DNA of 64,000 nt from Candidatus Levyibacteriota bacterium (GTDB lineage Bacteria > Patescibacteriota > Microgenomatia > Levybacterales > UBA12049): contig CAVRKE010000001.1 in the NCBI GenBank assembly GCA_963722305.1, forward strand, positions 501,549 through 565,548. The letters run 5' to 3'. Numbering within the stretch: position 1 is the stretch's first letter; the number at the start of each line of letters is the position of its first letter. The notes under the pieces are model-generated. The model did not search any database. It worked only from the letters and a program-made list of their open reading frames with translations, and had not been told where the DNA came from. This document shows, piece by piece, positions 3,402 through 61,683 of the stretch. The translations under genes and the position numbers were made by a program.

Positions 3402-3422
3402 ATTCACGATAAATATTGAATG

Positions 3423-3445: not shown

Positions 3446-3463
3446 TTGCCTACGTGTATTAGC

Positions 3464-3493: not shown

Positions 3494-3503
3494 CCGCTTT
3501 ATT

Positions 3504-4046: not shown

Positions 4047-4060
4047 CATTTAAACATTAA

Positions 4061-15994: not shown

Positions 15995-17093
15995 GGTACA
16001 TTCTAGCTCGAAGTGCAACGATTTGAGGTTTTTGTATTCTGCATGATTTCTCCTAAAACTTCAAGTGGTATTTTCCAATCCAAACATTTTCTGGGCGTAT
16101 TATTCAGTTCCCATTCAATTAAAGCAACGTCTCTTTCGGTAATTAGATCCATGCTTATGCCTTTAGGAATAAAACGCCTGATTCTTCCATTCATATTTTC
16201 AACCGTTCCTTTTTCCCAGGAGTGATATGCATGACAGAAATATACAGACATGTCTAAGCTCTCCGTAATTTGTTTATGTTTGGTATTTTCAGCTCCATTG
16301 TCAGCAGTCAGAGTTTTTCTGATTTTGTCAGGAAAACGACTCATTCTAGCAAACAGTTTCTTAGTTTTTTCATCTGCTGTTTTAGCAGCTAGCTTTGACA
16401 TAACAGTAAGCCTTAGTTTTCTTTCAACCGTTACTGACAGGGCAGTCTTGTCAGTTTGGCGGCCTATCACATTATCTGTCTCCCAATGGCCAAGTTGTAA
16501 TCTTGTGTCAATCGATTTGGGTCTACTATCAATCGAAATAGCTTCAGGAATACGGCTATCTCTATTAACCCTTCTTCCCAGCTTTTTCATTCTTTTCTTG
16601 CGTTTTACTGTTAGATATTGCCAGAGCTTAAATTGCTTGTTCTGTGGTTTGTAGATTGCCTGATAAATAGTTTCATGGACAATTGAAAGATCGGGATGAT
16701 CTTTTGACAATCTTCCGGCAATTGTTTCAGGAGACCACTGTTTCTCTATTAGTTTCTTTTTAACATAAGAGTAGACCTCCGGTCCTTTCCAGGATGCTTG
16801 AGAGCGTTGAATAGCTGCTCTCTTATCAGCTTTTTGTTGTGCACGGCAGGGAATATATACGGCTGAAGTTTTCTCCAATCCCTTGGTATATGTTCTGTTT
16901 CTTTTGAGTTCACGAGACAGAGTGCCTTTGTTTCGTCCTAATTTATCTGCAATATCTCCCAGACTTAGTCCTGCATGCTTAAGCGCATAAAGCTCTTCCC
17001 GCTCTACAAGAGTTAAATGATTATACATAGCGCAACACCTCCTTTCGGTAATTGATTTTACCTCAAGTGTTGCACTTCGTTTTAGAACCTACC
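15995..17093 (-). mobile_element. IS30-family insertion sequence (1099 bp)
   Basis: Terminal IRs GGTACATTCTAGCTCGAAGTGCAAC (15995-) and rc GGTAGGTTCTAAAACGAAGTGCAAC (-17093). A 3-bp direct repeat TAC lies at 15992-15994 and 17094-17096. The element sits between the def genes and fmt. Confidence 0.8.
16003..17028 (-). CDS. IS30-family transposase
   Basis: 341 aa. N-terminal HTH (LTLVEREELYALKHAGLSLGDIADKLGRNKGTLSRELKRN) and a DDE core (HWETDNV.., TADNGAEN.., WEKGTVENMNG). Confidence 0.9.
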   Translation of the reverse strand: MYNHLTLVEREELYALKHAGLSLGDIADKLGRNKGTLSRELKRNRTYTKGLEKTSAVYIPCRAQQKADKRAAIQRSQASWKGPEVYSYVKKKLIEKQWSPETIAGRLSKDHPDLSIVHETIYQAIYKPQNKQFKLWQYLTVKRKKRMKKLGRRVNRDSRIPEAISIDSRPKSIDTRLQLGHWETDNVIGRQTDKTALSVTVERKLRLTVMSKLAAKTADEKTKKLFARMSRFPDKIRKTLTADNGAENTKHKQITESLDMSVYFCHAYHSWEKGTVENMNGRIRRFIPKGISMDLITERDVALIEWELNNTPRKCLDWKIPLEVLGEIMQNTKTSNRCTSS

Positions 17094-43494: not shown

Positions 43495-44385
43495 CTAAAC
43501 CTTTAAAGTCTTAACCTCTGCAACTTGTCTTAGTAGCATTTCAAACATTTTTCCCTGATTGTTTCTCTGATTATATCGCCAAGCATATTCGTTGACATAA
43601 CTTTGGAGATATTTCTTTGAAACAACTCTATAAACTCCCGTAATTCCTCTTTTTAACTGAGACCATACCCCCTCAATAGTATTATTGTGAATAAATCCTC
43701 TTACATATTCTCCGCTTGAATGATTAACTTTGTCATGGTCGTAGTATCCAAAGTCATACAGGTTTTTATACGAAGCAAGTTCATCTGTCATGACATGGGC
43801 TTTAGGACTGACATTTTGTTTTATCTGGTTTATCAGCGTCCATTTTCCAGTATTGGGAATATGTTTTAAGTATGCCTTGCCACCCCTTTCAACTGCTCCC
43901 CAAACTACTTCCTTAGGTATTTCGTTGAAGTTTGGTTTTGTAGCTCTATTCTTACCCTTACCACCGATATATGTTTCGTCTATTTCAACAATCCCGCTTA
44001 AAAGTCCACCTTCCGTTTCTGCCATTAACATTCTGATTTGTTTAAACATTCTCCACGCCGTCTTATATGTTACCCCTAACATTCTCTCCAATTGTTTGGC
44101 CGATGTTCCGGATCTAGTTGTAACCATTAAATACATTGCAAAAAACCAAAGATCAAGTGGAGTACTGGTTTTTTCAAAGATAGTACCGGCCAGTGGATAG
44201 ATCTGAAACCCACAATACTTACAAGCATATGAGGTTCTATTGGTTACGGGATAGAAGACTGAAAGACTTTTACATTTAGAACATTCCATCTCATCTGGGA
44301 ATCTTAAGCGTTTAATAGCTTCCAGGCACTGTAAATGTGTACCGTATTTTCGCTTAAATTGTCTGAGGCTAAACTTCTTATTCAT
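43495..44385 (-). CDS. IS1595-family (ISXO2-like) transposase, a second, different element
   Basis: Zn-ribbon CSKCKS...CKYCG. DDE-type residues in VEIDETYIGG, VMTDELASY and NNTIEGVWSQLKR. The element ends could not be defined with confidence. Confidence 0.8.
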   Translation of the reverse strand: MNKKFSLRQFKRKYGTHLQCLEAIKRLRFPDEMECSKCKSLSVFYPVTNRTSYACKYCGFQIYPLAGTIFEKTSTPLDLWFFAMYLMVTTRSGTSAKQLERMLGVTYKTAWRMFKQIRMLMAETEGGLLSGIVEIDETYIGGKGKNRATKPNFNEIPKEVVWGAVERGGKAYLKHIPNTGKWTLINQIKQNVSPKAHVMTDELASYKNLYDFGYYDHDKVNHSSGEYVRGFIHNNTIEGVWSQLKRGITGVYRVVSKKYLQSYVNEYAWRYNQRNNQGKMFEMLLRQVAEVKTLKV

Positions 44386-47507: not shown

Positions 47508-47796
47508 TATGGTTTACCTGTCAAATTTGCCTCTTGATACATGCTGCGCTTTCCTTCGATTTCACTCAGGACTATAGTGCGCCCAGTCCTAAAGGATTTC
47601 GTTTCACTCAATATCGCGAACTATCTATAGACTATAGATATTTTGGGTCTTGATGCATGTTGCTTCGCTCAATACTTTCGCTCGGCCCAGTATCGCGTGG
47701 TAATTCTAAAATTGCCACTTGACAATTATGTTACACTTTGTTACTTTATCGTTGATTAATTATCATATTGATGACTATATGTATAGTCACAAGGTT

Positions 47797-48006
47797 ATGA
47801 ATAATCAAACCCTATCAATCAATAACCTACCCGATCTCCTGACAGTTAGGGAAGTGGCCCAAATCCTGAGAGTCTCCCCTCTCACCATCAAACGCTGGGG
47901 CAAAAGAGGAAAGCTCCCGGCCATAAGGATTAATTCCCGAGGAGATCGAAGGTACAAAAAGGAAGCCGTCCTCTGGCTTCTCGGTATTCAGGCAAAAGAA
48001 GAGTAA
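47797..48006 (+). CDS. Excisionase/MerR-type HTH DNA-binding protein (69 aa)
   Basis: LLTVREVAQILRVSPLTIKRWGKRGKLPAIRI. The start is set at the ATG at 47797, preceded by AAGG. The longer TTG-initiated track ORF is unlikely. Confidence 0.65.
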   Translation: MNNQTLSINNLPDLLTVREVAQILRVSPLTIKRWGKRGKLPAIRINSRGDRRYKKEAVLWLLGIQAKEE

Positions 48007-48131: not shown

Positions 48132-48641
48132 TTACTTCCCTGTGGGAACAACCGGAGCATTGAATGTCGGAGCAGCAGTCGGAACGGATGTAGGAGCCGG
48201 CGCACTGGCGCCAAGATTCACCGGCGCCACTTCAATAATTTTATTAATACTTTCCCGGTAGAGAATGGCCTTTTTCGCTTGGGTATAAATTAAAACCTTA
48301 TCACCATTTTGCGCATTGGCAAAAAACGGCTGGTCGCTCAATTTGGTAATATCCGAAACCGTGGCAATAGTCGGCTGCTCATTGGTCGGCAAAAGCATCA
48401 ATTTTCCAACTTCGGCCACCACCTGTTTTGCTTCGGCGTTTGTCGAAGCAGCCGGATTTTGCAATAAATTTTCCGCTTGCTTATATTGGTGATAAAAATA
48501 GTAAGACGGCAAAATCGCAATTACCAACAAAATTACAAGCACAATAATCCATAGCGATTTATTGCCTCTGAGGTTACTCAGTATTTTTTCTTGATATTCG
48601 CGAAGCTTCTGGACAGAAATTTTCACTACAGTTATTATCAT
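48132..48641 (-). CDS. Membrane-anchored hypothetical protein
   Basis: A single N-terminal TM helix (LWIIVLVILLVIAILPSYYFY) is followed by a ~110-aa soluble domain. Confidence 0.55.
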   Translation of the reverse strand: MIITVVKISVQKLREYQEKILSNLRGNKSLWIIVLVILLVIAILPSYYFYHQYKQAENLLQNPAASTNAEAKQVVAEVGKLMLLPTNEQPTIATVSDITKLSDQPFFANAQNGDKVLIYTQAKKAILYRESINKIIEVAPVNLGASAPAPTSVPTAAPTFNAPVVPTGK

Positions 48642-48720: not shown

Positions 48721-51531
48721 ATGAAGAAAAAAATAACCTTTGGCCTGCTCTTATTTTTTTTGTCTGTCAGTTTATTTTGGAATTTACCCGAGGTTAAAGC
48801 AGCCGGTTTTACCAGCGCCTATCTAAGGCTGAATAACCAAACTCCAAGCTCGGCTCTTGCGGGCACTGTTTGTGCCCAACCTTCTTCACCGGGTGCCGGC
48901 AGCGAAAGTAAAATCAGCCTTTCTTTTCCCGATGATTTTACAGTTTCGGGAAACACCAGCAACTGGACTACTAATGTTACCAATCTTCCTTCCGGTTCCA
49001 CACCCTGGCCATCAATCGGCAACCCCGCCGTCAGTATTTCTGGCCAGTCTGTCACATTCTCAAGCGGCGATTTAACCGCCGGCACTATTTACTGCTTTAA
49101 TTTTAACGGCGCTTCCTCGACCACCGGCGCTGTCGGCAATGATAAGACCGGTGCTCTAACAAGCAAAAATTCTTCGGATGTTATTATTGACCAGTCTGCT
49201 TATGCTGTCTCTATCGTTTCCAGTAACCAAATTGGAATTTCGGCCACTGTCTCGCCCGCGGCCTCCGACCTGCCGATCTCGATTGAATCAACTACTGTCG
49301 GCAACAATTTTCCGCAAAACACCATTTTGGACTATAAAATTACCTACGGTTCATTAACGGTCGGACCTTTCCCCTTAACTATTCAGGCCGAGTGGTCGCA
49401 AGGAACAATTGATGGTAGCCCTACGCCCTCAGTTGACCTTTTAAATTACGTCATCGGCAGTGCTTCGAATGCTTATGACGCAGCTCCGGCCGTAGTTGAT
49501 ACTACCAACCGAACTATCACCTGGACCATTAATTCTTTTCCCGGCAATACTGTTGGCCAGACGGTTACTTTTGAGCTGGAAACCAATGATTCTTATACCG
49601 GCAGCGAAGTTGTCAGTTTTAATGTGGCGGCCAGAAGCATGTCGGAGACAACGATTACTCCCGACCAGACAGTTAGCCAAACCTATCTTTACAGCACAGG
49701 GATTGAGCCAACCCCCACTCCCGCCCCCCCAACGGCCACGCCTACTCCCGGTACAAGTAGCAGCACCAGCACTATTACGCCAACCACCACTCCCACTGTC
49801 GCTTCCTCGCCCAGCCTGGCTTTTTCGGCGATTTCAATTCAGTCTCTATCGCAGTCCCAGGCCCAAATCGACGTTTCCACCACCAACAATGCAACTATCA
49901 CCGTCCAATATGGCACTGGCATCAATGCCCTTTCACAAAGTATTACTACTTCTTTGCCGACCAGCGAAGCTTTGCTAACCCTCCCAAACCTCACAGCCGA
50001 TACCAATTATTATTACCGCGTCACTGCCAAGGATGCTTTTGGCAACGTTATTAAGTCCGACATCTTTACTTTTAAAACTGCCGTTATCTCCCAAGCTACG
50101 CTGGCTGACCTGCAATCACTGATTGTCACCAGCAACAACAACATTTTACTTAACCCACAGACCGAAAAAATCACCACCGGTAATACCGTTTACTCGGTGG
50201 TTATTCCGCAGTTAAGCATTTTTGAAATTCATTTTTCGCTGACAAAATACGTGCCGATAAAAAATATCCAGGTAATCATCGAGAACAAACACGTTTTAGG
50301 CGCCAACACCTTTACTCCGCAGACGGCTGCTTCTAATTTTGTCGATTTGGTAGAAACCCAACCGGGGGTTTTCACCGGAAGGCTGTTAAGTCAACAAACT
50401 CCGGGAGTCTACGAGCTGTATGCCAAAATAGTCGACTACAACGGCAATATTACACTACAAAAAATAACGGACATCGTGGTTGTGCCGGAATTTAAGGTGC
50501 TTGAAAAAGGCACCAATAACCCCATCGAAGCTGCCAGAATACTGCTTTATCTGTATAACCCGACGACCAGAATTTACGAGGTTATTTCTCCGCAAATCCT
50601 GCCTATTAATAACCCTTTGTTTTCCCAGCCTAACGGAGTCGTCCCCATTGTTTTGCCCAAAGGGCAATACAAGGCGGATATTTCAGCCATTAATTACCAG
50701 TCCCAAACTGTGACGTTTGCAGTCGGGGCCACTTCTGGAAACTATCCGACTGTCTACCTGCAAAATCAACCATTCAGTCTGACTAATTATGTCAATTTCT
50801 TTCTTACCACGCTTTCCGATTACGTAATATCAAGCCAACAAACTTTAAGCCAGTTTTCTGCTTCAAGCCGCCTATTTGCCTTTTTGGAAGGCTTAACTTT
50901 ACTCGGCTTTGTCTTTTTAGCTTTTCTCTCCTTTTCGGCCAGGACGCACATTTCCCTACCCTATATTCCTTACTTTTTCTTCCATAAACTCAAGCAGCTA
51001 TTGTTTAAAGAAAATTCGCTGACCATTGGCAAAGTTTACGACGAGGTCACTCAAGCTCCGGTTTCAAAAGCACTGGTGTATATTATTGATGCGAAAAAGA
51101 ACAGCCTGATAGCGCATCTTCGAACCAACCGGCTGGGCGAATTTTACTGCCGAAAATTCGCAGCTGTCGACAAAATAAAGATTACCGTCGTCAAAAAAGG
51201 TTTTATCGCTAAGGCCCCGCTTGAATATAGCCAAAAAAGCTTGAGTGTTATGCCGATTAGCATCGCTTTGGAGAAAGATCTTACTTATCGAAAATCGGTG
51301 ATTGAGCTTTTGCTTTTGGCTATTGAGAACATTTTTGGTGCTTTTATGGAATTTACTCTGGTTCTGACAATTATTCTGGAGCTGTATTTTATCCCACCCT
51401 TAGGAATTCTCAAAGTGTCTCCTTTCCTGGCATTATCGATTTTTAACGTTGTTCTTTTAATTCTTTACCTCTACAAACCACGCAGTTTGATGTTCAAAAA
51501 TCCTCTGATAGAACAAGATCTTGCTGCTTAG
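48721..51531 (+). CDS. Large surface protein (936 aa): signal peptide, Thr/Pro linker, FN3-like module, carboxypeptidase-regulatory-like modules, C-terminal TM helices
   Basis: Signal peptide FFLSVSLFWNLPEVKA|AG. A PTPTPAPPTATPTPGTSSSTSTITPTTTPT linker. ..TADTNYYYRVTAKDAFGN.. is FN3-like. ..GKVYDEVTQAPVSKALVYIID....TNRLGEFY is CarboxypepD_reg-like. Confidence 0.65.
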   Translation: MKKKITFGLLLFFLSVSLFWNLPEVKAAGFTSAYLRLNNQTPSSALAGTVCAQPSSPGAGSESKISLSFPDDFTVSGNTSNWTTNVTNLPSGSTPWPSIGNPAVSISGQSVTFSSGDLTAGTIYCFNFNGASSTTGAVGNDKTGALTSKNSSDVIIDQSAYAVSIVSSNQIGISATVSPAASDLPISIESTTVGNNFPQNTILDYKITYGSLTVGPFPLTIQAEWSQGTIDGSPTPSVDLLNYVIGSASNAYDAAPAVVDTTNRTITWTINSFPGNTVGQTVTFELETNDSYTGSEVVSFNVAARSMSETTITPDQTVSQTYLYSTGIEPTPTPAPPTATPTPGTSSSTSTITPTTTPTVASSPSLAFSAISIQSLSQSQAQIDVSTTNNATITVQYGTGINALSQSITTSLPTSEALLTLPNLTADTNYYYRVTAKDAFGNVIKSDIFTFKTAVISQATLADLQSLIVTSNNNILLNPQTEKITTGNTVYSVVIPQLSIFEIHFSLTKYVPIKNIQVIIENKHVLGANTFTPQTAASNFVDLVETQPGVFTGRLLSQQTPGVYELYAKIVDYNGNITLQKITDIVVVPEFKVLEKGTNNPIEAARILLYLYNPTTRIYEVISPQILPINNPLFSQPNGVVPIVLPKGQYKADISAINYQSQTVTFAVGATSGNYPTVYLQNQPFSLTNYVNFFLTTLSDYVISSQQTLSQFSASSRLFAFLEGLTLLGFVFLAFLSFSARTHISLPYIPYFFFHKLKQLLFKENSLTIGKVYDEVTQAPVSKALVYIIDAKKNSLIAHLRTNRLGEFYCRKFAAVDKIKITVVKKGFIAKAPLEYSQKSLSVMPISIALEKDLTYRKSVIELLLLAIENIFGAFMEFTLVLTIILELYFIPPLGILKVSPFLALSIFNVVLLILYLYKPRSLMFKNPLIEQDLAA

Positions 51532-51622: not shown

Positions 51623-54600
51623 TTATTGAGTCGGTGTTATGGTTGGAGTTGAAGATTCAACCTGATTTAGAATTGATTGGAACGCCGCCGACTGGGTCGC
51701 TTGCGGTTCGGGTGTGGGCACTACCGGCTCCAGTCCCGCAGTTTTGGCATCCTGGACTGAAAGCGCCACCCAGGAAAAGTTAATATCTTCGGGTGCGGGT
51801 TTATTCAGCCGAATTGTAAATCCCTGGGTAGTTCTATCGGTAATCACATAAGAAAGATTACCGTTAAGGATGGCATCTTCCAAAGCTTTCTGGGCCACCT
51901 GGTCATTTATTTTGTCAAGGGCAATACTGGCAGTGACAACCGGTGTGTCGGCATACTCGTTGTCAAAAGTCACCGAAACAGTATCCTCTCCCTGCTTAAT
52001 CACCGCAAATCCGGCCGTATCGCTGTTGAAAGTCGGAGTTGAATTAAATCTGACGTTACCCTTAAACACCACGTCGTTCATAAAGTAACTAAAGCCGGAA
52101 ACGAGGAAATTATTGGTCGTCAGACTATCAAGAACATTCAAAGCGCCCTGGATAAGGCCGTTACCCGCAACATTTAAGTCGGCCGAAATAGTGGCCAAAC
52201 CGTTAACGTTCAAATCGGAAAGGTTGAGGGTTGAGGGAAGGGTTGTTGTCGCCGATGGCGTGGCTGTTGCCAATTCTCCGCTTTGAGTGGCATCGGAAAG
52301 AACCGCTACGCTATTAGATAGTGCTGAAATTTGGTTGGTCAGTATTTCCAAACCCTCAATATGGTCGGCCCTGATGGTTTTGGCAGTAATTAAGTCGGCG
52401 ACAATTTCCGGGCTGATTACCTCGCCGGCCGCCACTGTTCCGGTGAAAACTTCCGAAGAATTAAACGCTGCCGAACCGGCGTCCTTAAGGCTTTGCAGGT
52501 ATACCAAAGTATTTTGGTCACCGCTGGAAATTTGGTTCATGTAGGAATCAAGGCCGGTATCCCCATAGATATCGGCAAACCCCGCACTGGTCGAAGCCAC
52601 AAAGTTTTCGTCCGCCATTGCCAGCTCGACACTTTCGCCGTTATAGCTGGTTAAGTTAACAAAGACCGTGATAGTTCCGCATTGGGTGGTTGACAAACTG
52701 CCTGCCCCTTGGGCCGGACAATCGGAAACTTCGGTTGGGTCGGTCGGGTCAAAATCCTCAATAGCAGTTCCCAACACTCTGCCGGCCACCGTGGCTTTCA
52801 TCGCGTAACCGGGAATTGAAGACGATGTCAGGTAATCACCGGAATGGATTGGCCCGTTTTCGGTGGAAACCAGCACGGGCACGCGTCCCACAAGGGCGAT
52901 GGGATAAGAATCCGGTGTGTAAGCACCCGCTACGAATCCCGGGTCTGTTGAAACCACTCCCATGATGTTACTTTGGTATTGCATAGTTGACTGAATCACA
53001 TTTTGTGCATTAAATTGGTCGCCGACCACCACTTCTCCCGGATTTAAAGTTTGGGTGGAGGTGTAATTTTCCGCTAAATCCGCCCCGCCCGAGTTCCACG
53101 CCCCGCCTGCGGCTGTGTAAGCCTGTCCGTCGGCGGCAAACCTAAAGGCATTCATTCCTTCACTGGTTAAAGTCAAAATATTCGGGTCTGTGGTATTTGC
53201 CAGTCTCCAGTACTGCAAAGTTGGCGTCTGTATCTGCCTATAATAATCAACTGAACCTCCGCTATCTATTCCTGACCAAACTCTCTCTTTCTCATAAGGC
53301 ATATTTGGCATTGTTCCAGTAAGGGTAAACTTAAACTGCGCCCAGGTGTCGCCGGCATTTGGATTAATCAATCCACCGGCTTTTTCGACATCATTCCAGT
53401 TGGTGGCCGTCATGGCGGCCAAACTTGAACCGGTTCTTGATTGGACTCCGATTGCCCCCTGCCCGACATTTTTCCAGTCGAGCGAAGTATTGGCAGTAAG
53501 GTTATTGGAATTTATTGGTTCAGTCACATACGTCCCCTGTAAATTCCAGCCGGCATCAATGATCATTGTATTGGAACTGCCTCCTACAATGACTACAAAT
53601 TTTCCATCCGGTCTTTGAAAAACATTTGTGCCCGCAGCTAAATTGCTAGGCGAAGGTAACGTCGGGCCTGCCCAAGTTCCTCCTACAACCTGTACAGAAG
53701 GGTCCACAATTGTTGTCGAGGTTGCCCCGCCGTTTGCCCACAGTATTTTTCCATCCGGCAAAGGAATTGTAAATGCGCCCGCTCCGGCATTGGCAGACAA
53801 AACTTCACCGAGCGCGGCGGTAAACGTACCAAGTCTTGCATCATAAAGATAAATCGTAGTCGCGGCTGTTCCTCTGGTTTGCAGCCAGTTGCCGTTGGAA
53901 ATTTGCACAGTGGTTGCGTTTGCCCCGTATGCAGCAGTGGTAGCAGGGCCAACAACAAAAGAGTTGCTTGATTCTTCATAGATATCGGTTACCGCACTGG
54001 TCCCTAAAAAGACAAGGTATTTTCCGTCAGGCCTTTTAATGCTGTAGGCTCCAGCGGTGACCGTTGATGTAGTGGCCGGACCGGCTGTAAATGAATTTAA
54101 GAACGGGTCGTAAATGTTGGTATTGGCTGTTGCACCTCCCAAAATTATCAGAAATCTTCCATCAGAGCGCAAAATAGCATGAGCGCCTGCGCCAATTGCG
54201 GCTGTTACGCTAGGTCCGGCGAAAAAAATATTTCTGACCGGATCATAAATATCTGTAAGCTGAGAGGCGCCTATAAACAACATAAACTGCCCGTTGGGTA
54301 AAGGTATCGAGAATGAACCGGTATTCGGATTGCTCGCCCCAACCGTTGTCGGACCGACAGTGAACAAACCGGTAGTCGAATCATACATTCTGGTTGCGTT
54401 TGAATTACCAGCTAAGATAATCAAAAACTTACCGTTTGGCAACTGTAGAGTGTGGGACCCTGTTCCAGCAGTGCCGCCCAAGTCCGCCGAGGCAGATGCA
54501 ACAATAATATCGGCATTAGAACTTGGCACGCTGCCATTTTCAAACGTTGCCAAAGTAACGGAATCGGAATCGCCAGTAACTGTTCCGTTAAAAACCGCGC

Positions 54601-57600
54601 TTTGGGTGGCGGCGTTTCTATCTTCGGTTGAATCACTGGCCAGTACTCCACCGTAGCCGGCAATTGGATTCTGGATTTTGAAATCATAAAGCGTCGGTTG
54701 GGTAATTTGGCGCACGTACTCGGTTGAACCCTCTGACGCCCACATGTTGCTTGGCACTGCCGTTCCTACCACTTGGTTATAAGGCGGGGCAATCGGCGAG
54801 TTGAATTGAATTTGAACCTTGACTTGAGTCGCACCCGGCATAGTTTGAATCAAATCGCCGTTGTTTTGAATTAAGTTGTAACTCACACTGCCAAGATTCC
54901 CGTTAACAGCCGTTTTGACATAAACCTCGACTCCGGCCGAAGGCGACGCCGAAACCGCAGGCGTCGAATCCCAAAAAATCGCCGAATAGGTGGAAATTTT
55001 TGTGCTGGTAATATCTTCCGATGTCCAAACACCACCAGTCCTCCAACCTACGTCATAAACCGTCGAGTTTGTACCAAGTGCACCGTTAAGAATTAAATAA
55101 CTTCCGTTATCTCTCTGGAATACGCCGCCCCCTACCCCAACCGAATTAGGTAAATTATTGGTAACCTGCGTCAGACTGCCGGTTGTACCGGAGGTCGGGT
55201 CGTAAAGATATGTCGCTTTTGAACCGTTGCCAACCGTAATTATCCATTTGTTGTTGGCCATTTGAAAAGCGGTTGAACCGGTGCCGACTTTATCACTAAA
55301 TTGCGGTCCGGCTGTAAATGTGTTAGTGGCAAAATTATAAATATCCGTATTGATATTATTGTTGGCATCAATCACCATAAACCTGCCATCAGGCAGTTGC
55401 AAAACATTGGCGCCGGTACCCGCAGCCGACTGGAGCGTCGGTCCGGCCGAAAAAGTACTGGTTACAGGATCATAAATATTGGTGGTAGTGGTGTTACCGC
55501 CCAGGATTACTATCCACTTTCCGTCCTGACGCTGGAAAACCGCCGAACCGGAAGCGACAATATTACCTGCTCCCGATAAAGCCGGCCCCTGGGCCATAGT
55601 GTTGGCAACCGGGTCATACAATGCGCTATATTGTGAACCGCCGAGTAAAACCAGGAACTTGCCGTCGGAATGCGGAATAACGCGGGAACCACCGCCGGCG
55701 ATATACTGGACGCCGCCAATTACTGGCAGATTCGGGCCAACCGCGATTGAACCAAAATTATTACTTCCGGCCGGGTCATAAATATCGCTTCTGTTGGCAT
55801 AAGTGATTACGAATTTCCCATCCTGTCTTTGGAAAACCGCCGAGCCGGAACCAATGGTTGCAGTTAAGTTAGGTCCGACGGTAAAAGTATTGGTCGGCAC
55901 GCTATACGTGTAAATTCTGGCGCTGGCAGCCGATACTCCGCCTAAAAATGCTACTACTCCGTTTTGCTGCCGCATAATTGCCGAACCCGAAGAAATTGGG
56001 ATTACCGTTGAAGGTGCGCCGGTGGAAGTTGGATTGATAGTGCTTGCAGTTAAAGAATTATCAACCTGCATTGAAATATCATTATTTGCAATTGAAACGT
56101 TAGTTGAACAGTATCCACTGCCGCTGCAGAAAGTTCCTTGGGTAAAGTCTGAAGTGGTGTTTTTAGTGATATCATCGTTGGTTGAATTTCCGGCAATTCT
56201 AGCAGAACCGACAACGTCAAGATTGTAACCGGAATTAGCTAAAGAACCGCCAATCCCGACACTGCCGTTTTGGTTAACGACAAATCTGGTTGCCCCGGAA
56301 GCAGAAGCGGCAATCAAAGCGCCGGTTCCCGAATTGTCGACGACCAGACCAGCAAAAGAAGTTGCCCCGGAAATGGAGGCGATAGCAATTGTGCCATTAT
56401 TAAGTCTGACATCAAAGTTTGCCAGAGGAGTAGTTCCGTCAGTGTTAATCCCCACCAAACCTGAGCCGCCCGGATTAATCGCAAAGTTTTGGTTAGTTGC
56501 GGTGCTGATTGTATCAATACCGGTTCCGGTAAAGCTAATTCCCGAACCATTGCCGGCCATCACTAAATTCCCGTTTTGCTGAACGGTGAATAAAGGCACG
56601 CCGGAGGCTGAAGCCGTAAAAATATCTCCTGTTCCCAACTGGTTTATTGTTAATCCCGCAAAAGAACTATTTCCGGAGAAAGAAGCTACTCCCAAAGTTC
56701 CGCTGGAACCCCGAACATCCAAAGTGGCAAGCGGCGCGGTGGTGCCAATACCAATCATGGCGCTGGCGGTAGCGTTGTTGACACCTAAAATACTACCTAA
56801 GATTAAACTGTTGTTTTGTGTTACATAAGCATTGGCTCCAATGGCTGTGGCGTTAATCAGATTGCCTAAACCAACATCGGCACCATACCCCAAAAGCGTA
56901 TTTAAGCCTCCAACGTCAATTGTCTGTCCTGCCTGATCACCCACGGCAGTATTGTTGGTACCAAGAGTCGTACTTTGACCCGCCTGATAGCCGAGGAAGG
57001 AGTTTTGAAAACCGGCGGTGTTGGAAAAACCTGCTCTGCCACCGAGGAAGGAATTGTTATATCCGGCGTTATTGTTATAACCTGCATAAAACCCGAGGAA
57101 GGAATTGTTATACCCGCTGGTATTGAGCCAACCTGCCATATAGCCGAGGAAGGAGTTGTCGTATCCGGTCAGGTTGGATAAGCCCGCCGTTTCGCCAAAG
57201 AAGGAGTTTTGGTATCCGGTGGTGTTATTTTGACCTGCGTAAGATCCGAGGAAGGAATTTTGGTATCCGGTCAGGTTGGATAAGCCTGCATAAAATCCAA
57301 CGAAGGAATTGTTATTCCCGGCGGTATTAGCACCACCTGCAGAATCTCCAACGAAGGAATTATTGTATCCGGTGGTATTAGAATTACCTGCATAAGCTCC
57401 GAGGAAGGAATTGTAGGATCCGCTGGTATTAACACTACCTGCATTCATACCAAGGAAGGAGTTATTAGATCCGGTAGTATTATATTCACCTGCGCCATTT
57501 CCAAAGAAGGAGTTTAGAGATCCGGTGGTGTTGCTTTGGCCTGCCTGATAGCCGATGAACGAGTTAGAGCCACCAGTGGTGTTGGATTGACCTGCGTTTA

Positions 57601-60600
57601 GGCCGATAAAGGTATTGGATTTGCCCGATCCTCCGTTTCTAAAATCTATTGCGGTTGTGCCGTTAGAGTTTAAAATTGTGGCAATCGGACTAACTGTATT
57701 TACTTGCCTGAGGATAACGTTATCAATTGTTCCGTACCAATTCATCGTTGGGGTAAAAGTAAGGTCTCCCGCGCCGAAAGAAGTAATCAGTTGGGTGTCG
57801 GTTTTACTCATGTTGACGTCTTGACCGACGGCTGTACCGTTTGTTCCTCCAACACCCGGAGTTAAGGAACCGGAAGAAGTACCGGTAGTTGTAAAAGTGT
57901 AAGTCAGCTCATAAGTACCGGCAGCAATAAGCGTATCAAAATCAGTCGTGTTATTAGTTAAAGTAAATACCCCTGTTCCCGGAGCATCTTTAGCCGCAAC
58001 ACCACTTGAATTAACATTAACATTCCACGGGGGCTGTCCGCCTGATGTTGTCCAGTGGCCGGTGCCCGAAAATTGACTATCGTTAGCAACGTTCTTAATC
58101 TTATTCGCTTGTACATAACTAGCGACGTCTCCGCCAACAACTCCCTCAATCGCCAGTTTTGCTGTTGGCGTATTTGTTCCAATCCCGACATTGCCGTTAT
58201 TTTGTATTACAAACTTCGTCCAACCACTGGCGGAGGCGGTAAATAAATCCCCAACGCCGTCATTGTTGGCCACCAAAGAAGCAAAGGATGTTGCTCCGGA
58301 AATTGAAGCAATGGCGATTGTCCCAACGTTAGGCCTAACATCAAAATTGGCCAGAGGAGTAGTTCCGTCGGTGTTGATGCCAAAAAGACCGGTGCCGCCC
58401 GGATTAATCGCGAAGTTTTGGTTACTGGCAGTGGTAATAGTATTTAATCCTGAAGTTCCCGAGAAGTTAAGGTCTGCTCCGTTCCCCGACAATGTGATTC
58501 CGGTTGTTCCTGCCAAAGTCAAGTTGCCGGACGAATCAATGTAATTTGTGGCGCCAAAAAACTGCAGGTTGCCGGTTGAACCGGAATTAAGAGTTAGAGT
58601 GTTTCCACCGGTGTTTGTAATTGACGGGCTAGAACCGGTAAAAGCCAGATTTCCGCCATTACTTAAGGAGGCAAAAGTGCCAGCCCCAAGGCCCGTTACA
58701 GACCACTGAGCATCATTAAGTGCCAGATCACCGCTTGAAGCATTGCCGATGGTGATAGTTCCGGCATTTGAACCCGTACCAATGTTGGTGGTATTACTGC
58801 CCGAAGTATTAATACTGGTTGCACCCAAAACGGTTAAACCACCCAGAGTTCCCACCGAAGTTAAGGAAGAGCCGGTCACTCCCGAGCCTAAAGTAGTGGT
58901 AGACAAAACGGAAGTGCCTCCGATTTGGTATGCTCCCGAAGCGTTAACATTACCGGCATTGGAAATTGTGAACCTCGGCCAACCGGAAGCGGAGGCAGTA
59001 AATAAGTCCCCGACGCCATTGTTATTGGCCACTAAAGTTGCGAATGAAGTTGTTCCGGAGATGGAGGCCACCGCTAAAGTGCCGGAACTGCCCCGAACAT
59101 CCAGGGTTACGAAGGGAGCAGTTGTGCCGATACCAATATAGCCGGTATTATCCCGGATAGTCATGGCAGTTGCCCAGGTGTTCAGTCCTGACTTGTAGCC
59201 AAAGTTTAAAGTGCCGTTCCCCGGCTCAATGGTAGAGCTGTTTGTTCCTCCCAACACTAAAGTGGCAGAGATGGAAGCGCTACCGGTCGGAGCACCGATA
59301 TTGACTACTGTGGCAGCTCCGGCAAGATTAAGTGTGCCGGTTAATCCGGTATTAAATACAGCCAGAGATCCGGAAGTTTGGTTAGTAGCAATGGTTGTAC
59401 CATTAAGCGTGATTGTTCCCGAAGCACCGCCCATAGTTAGAGTTGTCGTTGCGCCACCATAGGTGATTGATGTCGGCGTCGCCAATTCCGTAACCGTAGC
59501 CAGACTGGAATTAATGTTTGAGGCGTTAAGATTGATGACGCTTCCTGCCGCCGAGTTTAATGGAGCAAGAGTAATATTGCCGCTGGTATTCCCGCCAATG
59601 GTTAAGAGCTGGTTATTGGTCGTTTGAATAGCCCCTGTTCCATAGATACTAAAAGTTAAATTACCGGAGATAGAAGCATTACCACCCAACTCATTAGTGC
59701 CACTGGTATAAGGCATCACAACCAGGTTGCCGCCGACTGTGGCAACCGGCGTCCCGCCAGCGAGGTTTAAAACCGCAAAGGCAGCCGAACTGGTTGCTTG
59801 TGAACCGATTAGAAAATCCGCAGTTGAGTTAATCGGCGTAATATATCCTCCTCCAACACCGCTAACCAAATTCCAGTAATTCGCTCCACCGCAACCGCTA
59901 CAAGACATAACCGTTAAGGCTCCGCCCTTGGTAATATGCCAGGAGTTACCTGTTCCCTCAATATCGTAAGAATAGCCGGAGGTTGTGCCTGATAAATTAA
60001 GCTGCAGACCTACCTGGTTAAACGAGCCGTTCGCTCCCGAAAGGTTTAAGGCCAAACCAACTACCCCCCCGGTTTGCGAAGTTGAGTTGGTAAGATTGGC
60101 CAAAGTACCGGTTGAACCCGTATCGGCATAGATTAAACCCGTGCCTGAATTTGGTAGTTTAACCGTAACACCATTTGCTACCTGCAAGGTGCCGGAGGTC
60201 GAGGCGTTTCCGGAGGTGTCCTGAACGGTTAGGCCGGCCACCTGTTGGGCATTAAAGGCAAACGGGACTGCGGCCATCTGAATTCTGGGAGTCATTTCGG
60301 AATCACTCCCTACTTTGACTCCCAGATAGAGTCCATCCCAATTGAAATTAAAATTGGCAGGAAATGCAACATTAGAGCCCAAAGCCACTCGGAAAATTCC
60401 GTCAACCGTGGTTACCGAATCTGTTTCTTGCCAGAGGTAACCCGAAGCCGGACTACCCGCGGTTGGGTGGTTATAGAAAGAGAAAGTCACCGAGTAGGTG
60501 CTATTGGTGACATTCGTTCCGGCGGCGTTAACCAGTTTTCCCTGAAAATTGATGGTGCGGTTAATGCCCGGCGCAGCCCACACCGGCTTTGTGAAAAATA

Positions 60601-60676
60601 GCGAAAAATTGGCAAGAAAAAAGACTATTGCCAAAACGGTCAAAAAGTGTCTAAAATTAGAGTGTGGTTTAAACAT
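51623..60676 (-). CDS. Giant secreted/surface protein (3017 aa): repeated tail-fibre-like modules, 14-residue YadA-head-like repeats, two Kelch-like beta-propeller arrays
   Basis: Uninterrupted 9-kb ORF with an N-terminal signal/anchor (LTVLAIVFFLANFSLFFTKPVWA|AP). The module GIGTTAP..LDVRG..GT.A.ASISG.TSFA.LV.N..G.GDLFTASASG occurs four times. About 14 copies of NSF.G..AG..NT.G. About 14 blades of ..DGKF.VI.GG....T.IYDP....F..GP...... Confidence 0.85.
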   Translation of the reverse strand: MFKPHSNFRHFLTVLAIVFFLANFSLFFTKPVWAAPGINRTINFQGKLVNAAGTNVTNSTYSVTFSFYNHPTAGSPASGYLWQETDSVTTVDGIFRVALGSNVAFPANFNFNWDGLYLGVKVGSDSEMTPRIQMAAVPFAFNAQQVAGLTVQDTSGNASTSGTLQVANGVTVKLPNSGTGLIYADTGSTGTLANLTNSTSQTGGVVGLALNLSGANGSFNQVGLQLNLSGTTSGYSYDIEGTGNSWHITKGGALTVMSCSGCGGANYWNLVSGVGGGYITPINSTADFLIGSQATSSAAFAVLNLAGGTPVATVGGNLVVMPYTSGTNELGGNASISGNLTFSIYGTGAIQTTNNQLLTIGGNTSGNITLAPLNSAAGSVINLNASNINSSLATVTELATPTSITYGGATTTLTMGGASGTITLNGTTIATNQTSGSLAVFNTGLTGTLNLAGAATVVNIGAPTGSASISATLVLGGTNSSTIEPGNGTLNFGYKSGLNTWATAMTIRDNTGYIGIGTTAPFVTLDVRGSSGTLAVASISGTTSFATLVANNNGVGDLFTASASGWPRFTISNAGNVNASGAYQIGGTSVLSTTTLGSGVTGSSLTSVGTLGGLTVLGATSINTSGSNTTNIGTGSNAGTITIGNASSGDLALNDAQWSVTGLGAGTFASLSNGGNLAFTGSSPSITNTGGNTLTLNSGSTGNLQFFGATNYIDSSGNLTLAGTTGITLSGNGADLNFSGTSGLNTITTASNQNFAINPGGTGLFGINTDGTTPLANFDVRPNVGTIAIASISGATSFASLVANNDGVGDLFTASASGWTKFVIQNNGNVGIGTNTPTAKLAIEGVVGGDVASYVQANKIKNVANDSQFSGTGHWTTSGGQPPWNVNVNSSGVAAKDAPGTGVFTLTNNTTDFDTLIAAGTYELTYTFTTTGTSSGSLTPGVGGTNGTAVGQDVNMSKTDTQLITSFGAGDLTFTPTMNWYGTIDNVILRQVNTVSPIATILNSNGTTAIDFRNGGSGKSNTFIGLNAGQSNTTGGSNSFIGYQAGQSNTTGSLNSFFGNGAGEYNTTGSNNSFLGMNAGSVNTSGSYNSFLGAYAGNSNTTGYNNSFVGDSAGGANTAGNNNSFVGFYAGLSNLTGYQNSFLGSYAGQNNTTGYQNSFFGETAGLSNLTGYDNSFLGYMAGWLNTSGYNNSFLGFYAGYNNNAGYNNSFLGGRAGFSNTAGFQNSFLGYQAGQSTTLGTNNTAVGDQAGQTIDVGGLNTLLGYGADVGLGNLINATAIGANAYVTQNNSLILGSILGVNNATASAMIGIGTTAPLATLDVRGSSGTLGVASFSGNSSFAGLTINQLGTGDIFTASASGVPLFTVQQNGNLVMAGNGSGISFTGTGIDTISTATNQNFAINPGGSGLVGINTDGTTPLANFDVRLNNGTIAIASISGATSFAGLVVDNSGTGALIAASASGATRFVVNQNGSVGIGGSLANSGYNLDVVGSARIAGNSTNDDITKNTTSDFTQGTFCSGSGYCSTNVSIANNDISMQVDNSLTASTINPTSTGAPSTVIPISSGSAIMRQQNGVVAFLGGVSAASARIYTYSVPTNTFTVGPNLTATIGSGSAVFQRQDGKFVITYANRSDIYDPAGSNNFGSIAVGPNLPVIGGVQYIAGGGSRVIPHSDGKFLVLLGGSQYSALYDPVANTMAQGPALSGAGNIVASGSAVFQRQDGKWIVILGGNTTTTNIYDPVTSTFSAGPTLQSAAGTGANVLQLPDGRFMVIDANNNINTDIYNFATNTFTAGPQFSDKVGTGSTAFQMANNKWIITVGNGSKATYLYDPTSGTTGSLTQVTNNLPNSVGVGGGVFQRDNGSYLILNGALGTNSTVYDVGWRTGGVWTSEDITSTKISTYSAIFWDSTPAVSASPSAGVEVYVKTAVNGNLGSVSYNLIQNNGDLIQTMPGATQVKVQIQFNSPIAPPYNQVVGTAVPSNMWASEGSTEYVRQITQPTLYDFKIQNPIAGYGGVLASDSTEDRNAATQSAVFNGTVTGDSDSVTLATFENGSVPSSNADIIVASASADLGGTAGTGSHTLQLPNGKFLIILAGNSNATRMYDSTTGLFTVGPTTVGASNPNTGSFSIPLPNGQFMLFIGASQLTDIYDPVRNIFFAGPSVTAAIGAGAHAILRSDGRFLIILGGATANTNIYDPFLNSFTAGPATTSTVTAGAYSIKRPDGKYLVFLGTSAVTDIYEESSNSFVVGPATTAAYGANATTVQISNGNWLQTRGTAATTIYLYDARLGTFTAALGEVLSANAGAGAFTIPLPDGKILWANGGATSTTIVDPSVQVVGGTWAGPTLPSPSNLAAGTNVFQRPDGKFVVIVGGSSNTMIIDAGWNLQGTYVTEPINSNNLTANTSLDWKNVGQGAIGVQSRTGSSLAAMTATNWNDVEKAGGLINPNAGDTWAQFKFTLTGTMPNMPYEKERVWSGIDSGGSVDYYRQIQTPTLQYWRLANTTDPNILTLTSEGMNAFRFAADGQAYTAAGGAWNSGGADLAENYTSTQTLNPGEVVVGDQFNAQNVIQSTMQYQSNIMGVVSTDPGFVAGAYTPDSYPIALVGRVPVLVSTENGPIHSGDYLTSSSIPGYAMKATVAGRVLGTAIEDFDPTDPTEVSDCPAQGAGSLSTTQCGTITVFVNLTSYNGESVELAMADENFVASTSAGFADIYGDTGLDSYMNQISSGDQNTLVYLQSLKDAGSAAFNSSEVFTGTVAAGEVISPEIVADLITAKTIRADHIEGLEILTNQISALSNSVAVLSDATQSGELATATPSATTTLPSTLNLSDLNVNGLATISADLNVAGNGLIQGALNVLDSLTTNNFLVSGFSYFMNDVVFKGNVRFNSTPTFNSDTAGFAVIKQGEDTVSVTFDNEYADTPVVTASIALDKINDQVAQKALEDAILNGNLSYVITDRTTQGFTIRLNKPAPEDINFSWVALSVQDAKTAGLEPVVPTPEPQATQSAAFQSILNQVESSTPTITPTQ
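56900..57616 (-). repeat. In-frame 42-bp tandem repeat array (~14-17 units) inside the giant gene
   Basis: The plus strand shows a periodic ..CCGAGGAAGGAATT.. every 42 bp, encoding NSF(L/F/V/I)G..AG..NT(T/S)G... Confidence 0.85.
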
Positions 60677-60802: not shown

Positions 60803-61084
60803 ATGGAAAACCTAATGAATGTTAAGCAAGTTGCGTTTATTCTTAAAGTCCATCCCCTAACGGTTCGCCGTTACATAAAAAGCGGAAAATTAAAAGCAGT
60901 CAGGGCCGGCGGCAATGTCCGGATTAAGGAATCAAGTCTGACGGAATTTAACAAAGACTTTACCACTGCTTCCTCACAAAGACAAATTATTAAAAGCAGA
61001 CTCCGCCCGGCAAAGATTTTTACGCTTGACGACCCGTTATTTAGGCTCAGAGGCCGTGGAGCAAGCCTGAACTTAAGCCCCTGA
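60803..61084 (+). CDS. Excisionase/MerR-type HTH DNA-binding protein (93 aa), possible antitoxin-like partner
   Basis: MNVKQVAFILKVHPLTVRRYIKSGKLKAVRAGGNVRI. A TTGCAT-N17-TATACT promoter lies upstream (about 60747-60775). Confidence 0.6.
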   Translation: MENLMNVKQVAFILKVHPLTVRRYIKSGKLKAVRAGGNVRIKESSLTEFNKDFTTASSQRQIIKSRLRPAKIFTLDDPLFRLRGRGASLNLSP

Positions 61085-61263: not shown

Positions 61264-61683
61264 ATGACCAGTAAAAAAGTTTATATCGCACCCAGCGCTT
61301 TTTACGCTCTAATTGACCGTGCCCATCCAAAACACGATCAGTCAGCGGCTTTCTTCCGGTTTTGCGCCGAGCAAAAATACATGCTATTTACCGATACAAA
61401 CACCTTAATCGAGGCTTATAATCATGTCTATATGGAAATTAGTCCTTCCCTGGCTAAAGACTTTTTGCGCACGATTTTTTTAGGCAACATTAACATTATT
61501 TACCCCGAAGAAAGCGACATTAAAGCCGCTTTGAAAACCTTAATCAATTACCAATCAACCGAGTTAACTTTTTCCCAAGCGCTGCGGGCAGTTTTGGCAA
61601 ATAGGCGCGGCGTTACGCAAGTGTTTACTTTTGATTACTTGCATCCGTTATTTGGTTTAAGCGTTTTCTATCTGCCGATATGA
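61264..61683 (+). CDS. PIN-domain-like protein (two of four canonical acidic residues substituted)
   Basis: The C-terminal TFSQALRAVLANRRGVTQVFTFDYLHPLFGL matches the PIN pattern (sf.Da..la.A.r.g...v.TfD.df). The first-strand Asp is Ala (VYIAPSAF), and the third acidic position is Gln. Confidence 0.5.
   Translation: MTSKKVYIAPSAFYALIDRAHPKHDQSAAFFRFCAEQKYMLFTDTNTLIEAYNHVYMEISPSLAKDFLRTIFLGNINIIYPEESDIKAALKTLINYQSTELTFSQALRAVLANRRGVTQVFTFDYLHPLFGLSVFYLPI

Follow-up and report, generated by a model that had tools for sequence, protein, structure and literature searches.

The MAT fibers of Bdellovibrio bacteriovorus (Bd2133, Bd2439 and Bd3182; Caulton et al. 2024, PMC10769870) are prey-recognition surface fibers and are the described system which the protein analyzed here most resembles. 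MATs are defined by a conserved domain of ~130 aa which follows the signal peptide and presumably lies nearest the cell, by beta-helix units with a capping loop (V-G-G/N-small-x-x-P-x-x-x-L), and by a C-terminus which is either an S74 chaperone-protease (SDxxxK) or, as an alternative, an adhesive tip designated "NS74". A second point of comparison is gp12 of phage phi29 (Peptidase_G2; PDB 3GQ7, 3GQH, 3SUC), in which a beta-helix lies upstream of a C-terminal beta-rich autochaperone starting D-x-A-E right after the cleavage point S691|D692, the mature gp12* ending at residue 691 (PMC6542822). A literature search for Peptidase_G2/PF11962 found no papers. The K1F/K1E endosialidase tailspikes are trimeric and combine an in-line beta-propeller and a beta-helical stalk with a C-terminal intramolecular chaperone which is cleaved (general knowledge; PMC3357383). 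With respect to contact between cells, several glycan-binding surface proteins are needed by epibiotic Saccharibacteria (PMC10633639).

The gene described here occupies positions 51623..60676 of the minus strand of the window (the whole stretch of DNA that was analyzed, 64,000 nucleotides). It is a single uninterrupted ORF of 3017 aa and takes up 14% of the window, in agreement with an earlier sequence-only reading, and nearly all of the features which that reading had described for the protein were found to be present. A search for relatives placed the source organism in the candidate phyla radiation (Patescibacteria) as Levyibacteriota-like. No public copy of the protein was found by exact-sequence look-up, an NCBIfam search gave no match, comparison of the whole protein with the PDB by phmmer gave nothing useful, and a PHROG "tail fiber protein" was matched weakly (E 0.0024). 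The protein is built from phage tail-fiber parts, two predicted Kelch propellers and a lectin-fold domain. We read it, with a probability of about 60%, as a MAT-like fiber adhesin, a Sec-exported giant fiber of Patescibacteria which likely acts in host recognition or attachment.

As in the Bdellovibrio MAT fibers, the signal peptide is followed by a conserved beta-rich N-terminal domain, a likeness of position and description. Both have a beta-helix shaft with a V/I-G-I-G/N-T-x-x-P-x-x-x-L capping loop, and both are built as mosaics, with exchangeable adhesive domains and folds of the lectin type. Like the predator, the present organism would have to recognize other cells. In contrast to the ~1000 aa of a typical MAT and the 1915 aa of the longest MAT listed, the present protein has 3017 aa (~3x), and its C-terminus consists of a phi29 gp12/G2-type chaperone, a helical stalk and an H-type lectin fold, in place of S74 (SDxxxK). 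Neither the in-line pair of Kelch propellers nor the 17-aa solenoid is among the MAT domains described in the available part of that paper, and Patescibacteria are absent from its Table S3 selection. The capping-loop units of the definition are present in the giant protein, and with respect to the tip it fits NS74 in the broad sense only.

Export signal, shaft and repeat array

All coordinates below are on the minus strand unless otherwise indicated. The protein opens with a signal-like segment, MFKPHSNFRHFLTVLAIVFFLANFSLFFTKPVWA|AP (aa 1-34; 60575..60676), read from the sequence as a basic n-region, a 17-aa hydrophobic core and VWA|AP. Equivalent N-termini are present in homologues, and the signal or anchor expected at this end was upheld; the segment would direct Sec export. 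Directly after it lies a conserved beta-rich domain (INFQGKL..., aa 35-150; 60227..60574), which occupies the same place after the signal peptide in giant relatives from Patescibacteria (bit scores 93-164) and which, after local iteration, was found in 69 of 120 S74-terminated fiber proteins and also in short G2-terminated proteins of other phyla. It is common to hundreds of fibers of this kind and had been overlooked in the sequence-only reading. This domain of ~115 aa is presumed to anchor the fiber on the surface of the producing cell. The Gly/Thr/Asn/Ser-rich region that follows (aa 151-505; 59162..60226) had no family match in Pfam, is kept in relatives L003 and L006, and from its composition only is presumed to be fiber shaft.

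Four modules of ~70 aa start at aa 512, 773, 1306 and 1416 (pairwise identity 50-74%), and two near-identical 30-aa leaders (NQNFAINPGG.GL.GINTDGTTPLANFDVR) were located at aa 752 and 1395; modules and paired leaders had both been described from the sequence beforehand. Module M1 (aa 506-590; 58907..59161) opens with the capping-loop motif YIGIGTTAPFVTLD, the leader and module M2 (aa 752-851; 58124..58423) carry the capping loops FGINTDGTTPLANFD and NVGIGTNTPTAKLA, module M3 (aa 1299-1384; 56525..56782) carries MIGIGTTAPLATLD, and the leader and module M4 (aa 1395-1494; 56195..56494) carry VGINTDGTTPLANFD, giving five copies of the motif at aa 514, 765, 830, 1308 and 1408. Supplementary Fig. 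18 of PMC10769870 gives matching capping-loop motifs for MATs and MyRF. When the module profile (A4) was compared with the PDB, Bd2133 was matched (8ond_A, E 2.5e-6), as were 8ojn_C (E 8e-5) and 8ol4 (E 0.14). Judged by this profile comparison, the modules match solved beta-helix units of Bdellovibrio MAT fibers, capping-loop motif included, and the hits to the MAT structures 8ond and 8ojn bear out the tail-fiber-like character earlier ascribed to them. AF2 models of modules M3 and M4 were of low confidence. Between module M2 and the repeat array lies a domain of ~160 aa (aa 852-1010; 57647..58123) which was absent from the sampled Patescibacteria relatives and gave no Pfam match and no PDB sequence match by phmmer, aa 845-1010 returning only chance antibody Fab matches. 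It looks like a carbohydrate-binding jelly-roll and is put forward as a candidate only.

The repeat array (aa 1021-1292; 56801..57616) consists of 13 regular, in-register NSFxGxxAGxxNTxGxx units (aa 1021-1241), ~3 degenerate units extending to aa 1292, and a cap. TRF, repeat families and the spacing of NSF agreed on a period of 17 aa or 51 bp; the array had thus been recognized correctly, but the period of 14 aa (42 bp) assigned to it did not stand. The motif string given for it in the sequence-only reading itself has 17 letters. The array gave nothing useful against the PDB by phmmer and was modeled as a generic beta-solenoid. It has >5900 homologues, mostly with a Peptidase_S74 end, two of which carry the source label "trimeric autotransporter adhesin", and an array of this kind was present in only 1 of 117 giant relatives. 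The S74-ending "tail fiber domain-containing proteins" of Bacteroidota, Chlorobi, Acidobacteriota and others have the same N-terminal domain as the giant protein and share with it the NSFxGxxAGxxNTxGxx array (40-57% identity), the cap NATAIG...SLILGS and the subsequent GIGTTxP loop. Those proteins have 600-880 aa and end in S74, whereas here the array is one insert in a far larger protein with a G2-type end. The 17-residue solenoid was apparently gained from the S74 class of fibers.

Heads of YadA-type trimeric autotransporters resemble the array in that a short, regular Asn/Gly-rich repeat forms a narrow beta-solenoid. The YadA-head identity proposed for it was nevertheless rejected, as the 17-residue repeat is of the type found in bacterial "tail fiber domain-containing proteins"; the 14-residue YadA_head/Hep_Hag repeat together with a C-terminal YadA anchor was not found. 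The suggestion that long internal DNA repeats make the gene prone to recombination found little support, since the 51-bp units are mutually 63-71% identical, the sole long internal repeat pair (265 nt) is 73% identical, and exact repeats within the gene reach 24 nt at most. The shaft as a whole would be a long mosaic of capping-loop beta-helix units and the 17-residue beta-solenoid.

C-terminal autochaperone and lectin-fold domain

The C-terminal block starting GADLAENY at aa 2529 is a phi29 gp12-type (Peptidase_G2) intramolecular chaperone (aa 2529-2690; 52607..53092), and the phage-appendage-like character attributed to this block was confirmed by the homologues, by Foldseek and by alignment of the cleavage site. 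Within the 3017-aa protein itself PF11962 (Peptidase_G2) remained below the Pfam gathering score and gave no match. Homologues P0027, P0030 and P0118 reached 28.7-29.5 bits with this family against a cut-off of 25, and their PF11962 region aligned to aa 2529-2640 with 36% identity. The AF2 model of aa 2531-2680 had pLDDT >90 and was matched by Foldseek to 3suc, the pre-mature gp12 (E 6.5e-4, prob 1.0, 217 aligned columns). A profile of the full C-terminal alignment (A1) gave no match in the PDB; only the trimmed core profile did so, with the gp12 structures 3gqh and 6qz9 as top matches at E 0.11. Sequence similarity to gp12 is therefore marginal, and whereas the domain is terminal in gp12, the giant protein is cellular and carries a signal peptide. 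The domain is also 38% identical to jumbo-phage virion proteins (PA5oct-like). No PF13884 (Peptidase_S74) match was obtained in the 3017-aa protein, which therefore falls outside the S74 subgroup.

Conservation and the gp12 alignment predict an autocleavage site at A2532|D2533 (motif A-D-L-A-E; 53078..53083). Both D2533 and E2536 are invariant across the core alignment (A2), with conservation of at least 90% in A1, and they align with D692 and E695 of gp12 (residue 1 of 3gqh_A; residues 692/695 of 6qz9_A); from this we infer autocleavage at the equivalent bond. The autochaperone would nucleate trimerization from the C-terminal end and would then cut the chain at this position. ATP-dependent release has been described for gp12, and release in that style is implausible outside the cell. 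The DxxE motif is followed by 163 aa in gp12, by 133-150 aa in non-Patescibacteria homologues, by 430-670 aa in Patescibacteria homologues and by 485 aa in the present protein, in which the autochaperone is accordingly not the very C-terminal end.

Within this extension a helical segment and possible coiled coil (aa 2691-2800; 52277..52606), with AF2 helices at aa 2710-2737 and 2776-2798 of medium to low confidence, precedes an H-type lectin-fold domain (aa 2885-2975; 51752..52024) and a Pro/Thr-rich C-terminal tail (aa 2976-3017; 51626..51751), the tail being read from the letters themselves and kept in P0030. Pfam H_lectin (PF09458) scored 18.2 bits on aa 2885-2975, under the cut-off of 24, and 29.2 bits, above it, in homologue P0068. 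The lectin-fold model had pLDDT >90 and was matched by Foldseek to 3wmp, 4q56, 2ccv and 2vm9 (prob 1.0, E 6e-3 to 4e-2). This domain had been overlooked in the earlier reading. Helices and an H-type lectin fold placed after an autochaperone are an unusual arrangement. In this Patescibacteria version, a helical stalk and then a lectin-fold head come after the chaperone, and the head would be a second glycan-binding candidate. If cleavage occurs, a cut at D2533 would part the lectin head from the shaft, which is awkward for a model with the lectin as the fiber tip.

These features could also belong to a structural part of the envelope, an S-layer-associated or sheath-like fiber without partner recognition, in which the G2-like domain would serve for trimerization only, without cleavage, and the C-terminal lectin, joined in some homologues by SH3, would attach to the wall of the producing cell itself. 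Consistent with such a fiber, H_lectin is followed in P0068 by a wall-binding-type SH3_3, conservation in the giant-protein family is highest in the C-terminal cassette, and the gene of a conserved small membrane protein lies alongside. However, the invariance of D and E in the cleavage motif argues for kept autoproteolysis, the middle parts of the family are mosaic and rapidly shuffled, as is typical of recognition proteins and not of scaffolds, and the conserved N-terminal domain of MATs is presumed to be cell-proximal. We therefore consider a purely structural role unlikely.

Predicted Kelch propellers

Two Kelch-like blocks of about seven repeats had been noted from the sequence, and these were resolved as exactly 7 + 7 blades of ~46 aa each (44-52 aa) which align cleanly. 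Kelch array 1 (aa 1561-1889; 55010..55996) was identified by Kelch_6, by blade alignment and by comparison of the blade profile with the PDB, and array 2 (aa 2070-2391; 53504..54469) by the latter two. Kelch_6 scored 27.3 bits on aa 1500-1900 against a Pfam cut-off of 25.3, and only 20.8 bits on the whole protein; relatives P0255, P0262, P0268 and P0270 pass the Pfam Kelch cut-off, and 1046 relatives were found. In the PDB the blade profile matched 6ryw (E 3.6e-8) and galactose oxidase 1gof (E 1e-3). Both arrays are accordingly predicted as seven-blade propellers of the galactose-oxidase type, with closure of the ring likewise a prediction. Each block is followed by a domain of ~120 aa, the first (aa 1890-2010; 54647..55009) without a family match in Pfam and duplicated along with its propeller, and the second (aa 2392-2505; 53162..53503) situated upstream of the autochaperone and kept in homologues. 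The two units of propeller plus post-propeller domain are 29% identical over 455 aa, a duplication which the sequence-only reading had overlooked.

In plan the protein can be likened to the endosialidase tailspikes, whose propeller is a six-bladed sialidase combined with an S74 chaperone, whereas here seven-bladed Kelch propellers without evident catalytic residues are combined with a G2-type chaperone. An enzyme rather than an adhesin, that is a secreted or surface-bound protein which degrades polysaccharide (a tailspike-like depolymerase or a Kelch oxidase) for feeding or for breach of the host envelope, appears quite improbable. The domain searches detected no family of glycoside hydrolases, lyases or oxidases. 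Array 1 contains 0 Cys and 1 His and array 2 contains 0 Cys and 2 His, so that neither array offers the Cys-Tyr/His copper site of galactose oxidase, and a galactose-oxidase-like (AA5) enzyme was rejected on these counts. In addition, the regular 17-aa solenoid seems to lack irregular loops of the kind from which catalytic clefts are usually built. In the MAT-like adhesin the two propellers, displayed laterally, would be binding modules and not oxidases.

Genomic context and biological role

Downstream of the giant gene and on the same strand, a single-pass membrane protein of 169 aa is encoded (48132..48641), for which no Pfam family was found and which had been overlooked in the earlier reading. 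In 32 of 81 loci a same-strand homologue is found downstream, in 21 of those within 1.5 kb and often as tandem copies, and relatives of the giant gene usually adjoin a small single-pass membrane protein. On the other side, a divergent gene encodes a 93-aa HTH_17/MerR-type protein (60803..61084, plus strand) which shows synteny with the giant gene across 7 related genomes. The flanking large secreted proteins and small HTH proteins reported earlier were both recovered, the small ones being HTH_17/MerR. A neighborhood comprising L10, a 936-aa protein, the 169-aa protein, the HTH protein and a 139-aa protein is kept across seven Patescibacteria genomes. The identity of the 139-aa neighbor as a PIN toxin was dropped, being without Pfam support. 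The window also encodes MreB, PBP2, ribosomal protein L10 and tRNAs, no phage core genes (capsid, portal, terminase, tube, sheath) were found near the giant gene, and its context is cellular, not viral. Relatives occur mainly in Patescibacteria genomes, in which proteins of 1400 to >3900 aa are common.

That the gene encodes a phage or prophage tail fiber, tailspike or tailocin fiber and not a cellular surface protein is very improbable, for although the G2 chaperone is like phi29 gp12 and PA5oct-like virion proteins, a PHROG "tail fiber protein" was matched, the beta-solenoid resembles phage receptor-binding proteins and HTH_17/excisionase-like genes flank the locus, the protein has an N-terminal signal peptide, the neighborhood lacks phage core genes and is kept in seven Patescibacteria genomes, and giant relatives are common there; a prophage origin was rejected on genomic context.

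For the MAT-like fiber adhesin, the most likely role would be contact with another cell via surface glycans, by which an episymbiont would recognize its host and attach to it. Such a role, which the sequence-only reading had raised, is plausible because the organism belongs to the candidate phyla radiation. A fuller proposal, which we offer tentatively and hold to be rather doubtful, is that Patescibacteria own a lineage of giant phage-derived trimeric fibers in which a phi29-type self-cleaving chaperone is non-terminal, with a stalk and an H-type lectin head behind it. Cleavage would then yield a propeller fiber of ~2530 aa and a separate trimeric lectin of ~485 aa, working with the dedicated small membrane protein encoded adjacently as an episymbiont host-recognition apparatus.

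How members of the candidate phyla radiation find and hold their hosts is largely unexplained, and their large surface proteins mostly carry no annotation beyond "hypothetical". One such giant is now placed in a mechanistic class, that of MAT-like, phage-fiber-derived adhesins with a predicted self-cleaving chaperone. It offers as handles the cleavage site predicted at A2532|D2533, three modules that are candidates for glycan binding (the two Kelch propellers and the H-type lectin) and a conserved membrane-protein partner. These data suggest that the MAT design is not confined to the predator for which it was described in 2024 but extends to episymbionts, and that the G2 chaperone can serve in it besides S74.

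Chromosomal setting and conserved neighbours

The giant gene is a single unbroken ORF of 3017 codons (51623..60676, − strand) with a G+C of 0.47-0.50, compared with 0.41-0.44 around it, probably because the protein is rich in Gly, Ala and Thr. The window is cellular chromosome, and its genes include those for MreB, a PBP2-type transpeptidase, a P-type ATPase, a Wzy_C protein, ribosomal protein L10 and four tRNAs. Two mobile elements interrupt this otherwise housekeeping region: an IS1595-family transposase (43495..44385, −), adjoining the segment where GC is lowest (0.33, at 42-44 kb), and a protein (16003..17028, −) in which HTH_38 is accompanied by an integrase-core (rve) match below threshold.

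Upstream of the giant gene, and divergent from it, lie genes for an HTH_17/MerR-type 93-aa protein (60803..61084, +) and a 139-aa protein without known family (61264..61683, +), a pair whose synteny holds across seven related genomes. A gene for a large secreted protein which runs past the window end (61680..>64000, +) overlaps, at its start, the last 4 bases of the 139-aa gene; no Pfam family was found in this protein, and a single short segment matched a PHROG annotated 'virion structural protein', with E 4e-8. A second HTH_17/MerR gene (47719..48006, +) is located on the opposite side of the giant gene. In one database homologue (P0106, Daviesbacteria), HTH_17/MerR domains are fused to a C-terminal region resembling the Peptidase_G2 (G2) chaperone type. 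Downstream of the giant gene is a 169-aa single-pass membrane protein (48132..48641, −) with no match to any known family, and between the two lies a 936-aa protein (48721..51531, +) that has a signal peptide and an fn3/purple-acid-phosphatase-N-like domain and ends in several membrane helices; it is kept at the same position in related loci L002, L003, L011, L019 and L022 (36-49% identity). In 32 of 81 loci a homologue of the 169-aa protein was encoded downstream of the giant gene and on its strand, at most 1.5 kb away in 21 of those 32 and often as two or three tandem copies; such homologues stand just after the giant gene in L009, L012, L014, L015, L023, L024 and others. This protein may act as an anchor or as a partner in assembly.

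Seven related genomes keep the neighbourhood of 936-aa secreted/membrane protein, 169-aa membrane protein, HTH_17 protein and 139-aa protein, and no phage core genes were found near the giant gene. On these grounds a prophage fibre was rejected and, since the chromosome is cellular, the giant gene is a resident cellular gene; that it encodes a phage fibre of any kind is highly improbable.

Homologues of the C-terminal part were overwhelmingly from Patescibacteria, the closest being on a 936-kb contig (81% identity; titled 'Gammaproteobacteria', evidently mislabelled) and in a Levyibacteriota MAG (77%). Many MAGs with close relatives (L002, L004-L007, L011, L015, L019-L022 and others) bear the titles 'uncultured Gammaproteobacteria', 'Pseudomonadales' or 'Bdellovibrionales'. 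Their gene order is that of the Levyibacteriota locus L003, their contigs are at most 0.94 Mb, and they look like Patescibacteria genomes that were mislabelled automatically. Among metagenomic relatives of the C-terminus, the closest (P0002 in L001, 79% identity) was called as four consecutive same-strand genes (ENA contig_97328, 3..5219) jointly covering aa ~512-3016, probably one giant gene split by assembly or frameshift errors.

Shaft modules, 17-residue array and Kelch arrays

The sequence-only reading had described a signal-like N-terminus, four ~70-aa modules, two 30-aa leaders, an array of NSFxGxxAGxxNTxGxx units, DGK(F/W)-type repeats and a GADLAENY block, and all were present; the modules share 50-74% pairwise identity, the leaders differ at two positions and the DGK(F/W) repeats form two sets of seven. 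Right after the signal peptide is a domain (aa 35-150) which occupies the same position in giant Patescibacteria relatives (bit scores 93-164). Following local iteration it was detected in 69 of 120 collected fibre proteins terminated by Peptidase_S74 (S74), and it also occurs in short G2-terminated proteins of Chloroflexota, Ignavibacteriota, Krumholzibacteria and others.

When a module profile of 17 sequences was searched against solved structures, it matched mosaic adhesive trimer (MAT) fibres of Bdellovibrio, 8ond_A (Bd2133) at E 2.5e-6 and 8ojn_C at E 8e-5. For a further MAT fibre, 8ol4, E was 0.14 and the matched peptide was NVGIGTTTTTEKLN, which appears under Bd2439 in Supplementary Fig. 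18 of PMC10769870. The conserved module starts (YIGIGTTAPFVTLD, FGINTDGTTPLANFD, NVGIGTNTPTAKLA and so on) are, judged by sequence, the 'capping loop' motif defined by Caulton et al. for MAT and S74 fibres, which includes RVGINTDRPDEALV of MyRF (PMC10769870). Modelled as a single chain, modules M3 and M4 gave a pLDDT of ~50 (AF2); so poor a model would be expected of an intertwined trimeric beta-helix, and proves nothing.

The array had been assigned a period of 14 residues (42 bp), whereas TRF, repeat families and NSF spacing all gave 17 residues (51 bp). Its reading as a beta-solenoid, with several phage depolymerases among its counterparts, was supported; the likeness to a YadA head was not, as YadA_head/Hep_Hag models had no match in the giant protein. 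The suggestion that the DNA repeats are recombination-prone is weak, given 51-bp units 63-71% identical, a sole long pair (265 nt) at 73% and a longest exact repeat of 24 nt. More than 5900 database proteins match the array, mostly 600-880-aa 'tail fiber domain-containing proteins' ending in Peptidase_S74 and spanning Bacteroidota, Chlorobi, Acidobacteriota and other phyla; the array cap (NATAIG...SLILGS) and next GIGTTxP loop are also common to S74-class proteins. The giant protein has 12 strict matches to the unit. Because at least three units occur in only 1 of 117 giant relatives, and aa 850-1290 were matched by none of 25 related loci covering most of the giant protein, the array and the aa 852-1010 domain look, from sequence comparison, like a mosaic insert that came from fibres of the S74 class.

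The Kelch-like nature of the other two arrays was borne out by Kelch_6, which exceeded the Pfam cut-off on the segment (27.3 versus 25.3 bits) and in several relatives. The 14 blades share the consensus xGxGSxxxQxxDGKFLxxxGxxxxxTxIYDPxxNxFTxGP, and a ~120-aa domain follows each predicted propeller, the two propeller-plus-domain units being 29% identical over 455 residues. In the PDB the blade profile matched Kelch-domain oxidases (6ryw at E 3.6e-8) as well as galactose oxidase (1gof at E 1e-3), and weaker homologues carry Kelch_1, 2, 3, 4, 6 and Glyoxal_oxid_N. An exhaustive search yielded 1046 relatives (96 at E<1e-30), many within proteins of 1500-4454 aa. Both Kelch arrays contain zero cysteines, which rules out a copper-radical (galactose-oxidase-like) site. 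They are best read, on sequence, as binding modules, and a depolymerase or oxidase is improbable.

An internal chaperone and a lectin-fold extension

The C-terminal block, earlier likened to a phage appendage domain, was identified by four lines of evidence (aa 2529-2690) as an intramolecular chaperone of the type found in phi29 gp12, the pre-neck appendage protein. Three homologues exceeded the Peptidase_G2 cut-off exactly where they aligned to GADLAENYT, and a jumbo-phage virion protein was 38% identical to the region. The AF2 model (pLDDT >90) matched pre-mature gp12 (3suc; E 6.5e-4, prob 1.0), and also trimeric phage capsid cement proteins. The best PDB matches of the core profile were gp12 autochaperone chains, at E only 0.11; this alignment placed D2533 on the residue directly after the cleavage point of gp12 and matched E2536 to E695, both D2533 and E2536 being invariant in the core alignment of the family.

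Homologues outside Patescibacteria end 133-150 aa past this motif, like gp12, and those of Patescibacteria continue for 430-670 aa more. In the giant protein the extra part comprises predicted helices, a stretch modelled with low confidence and, modelled with confidence, an H-type lectin fold (aa 2885-2975), which matches SLL-2, Helix agglutinins and discoidin II. In one homologue the lectin is followed by an SH3_3 domain. That the chaperone lies internally is truly puzzling. If it cleaves, the lectin head would part from the shaft. Some homologues (P0092, P0093, P0097) carry two tandem G2-type cores (xYDFAE ..., the second ~250 aa on), an internal duplication that one would not expect of a terminal chaperone which cleaves itself.

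Likeness to MAT fibres and a proposed role in host contact

The giant protein fits the MAT plan, which combines an export signal and a conserved base domain with a trimeric mosaic shaft, binding domains that vary and, at the C-terminus, a folding device. We infer, rather than observe, its trimerisation, A2532|D2533 cleavage, cell-proximal end and ligand. A purely structural envelope fibre with its C-terminus bound to the producer's own wall seems rather unlikely. All the parts come from known families, and the design as a whole is known too. The novelty lies in the way a G2-type chaperone at an internal position is combined with a lectin extension, two predicted Kelch propellers and a solenoid apparently imported from the S74 class, and also in the protein's size, its phylum and its link to a membrane protein. 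MAT fibres are described on the Bdellovibrio surface as recognizing prey glycans (PMC10769870), and cultivated Saccharibacteria that live as epibionts depend on several surface proteins that bind glycans (PMC10633639). The most economical reading, by analogy with MAT, is that the giant protein may serve in host contact by a Patescibacteria cell.
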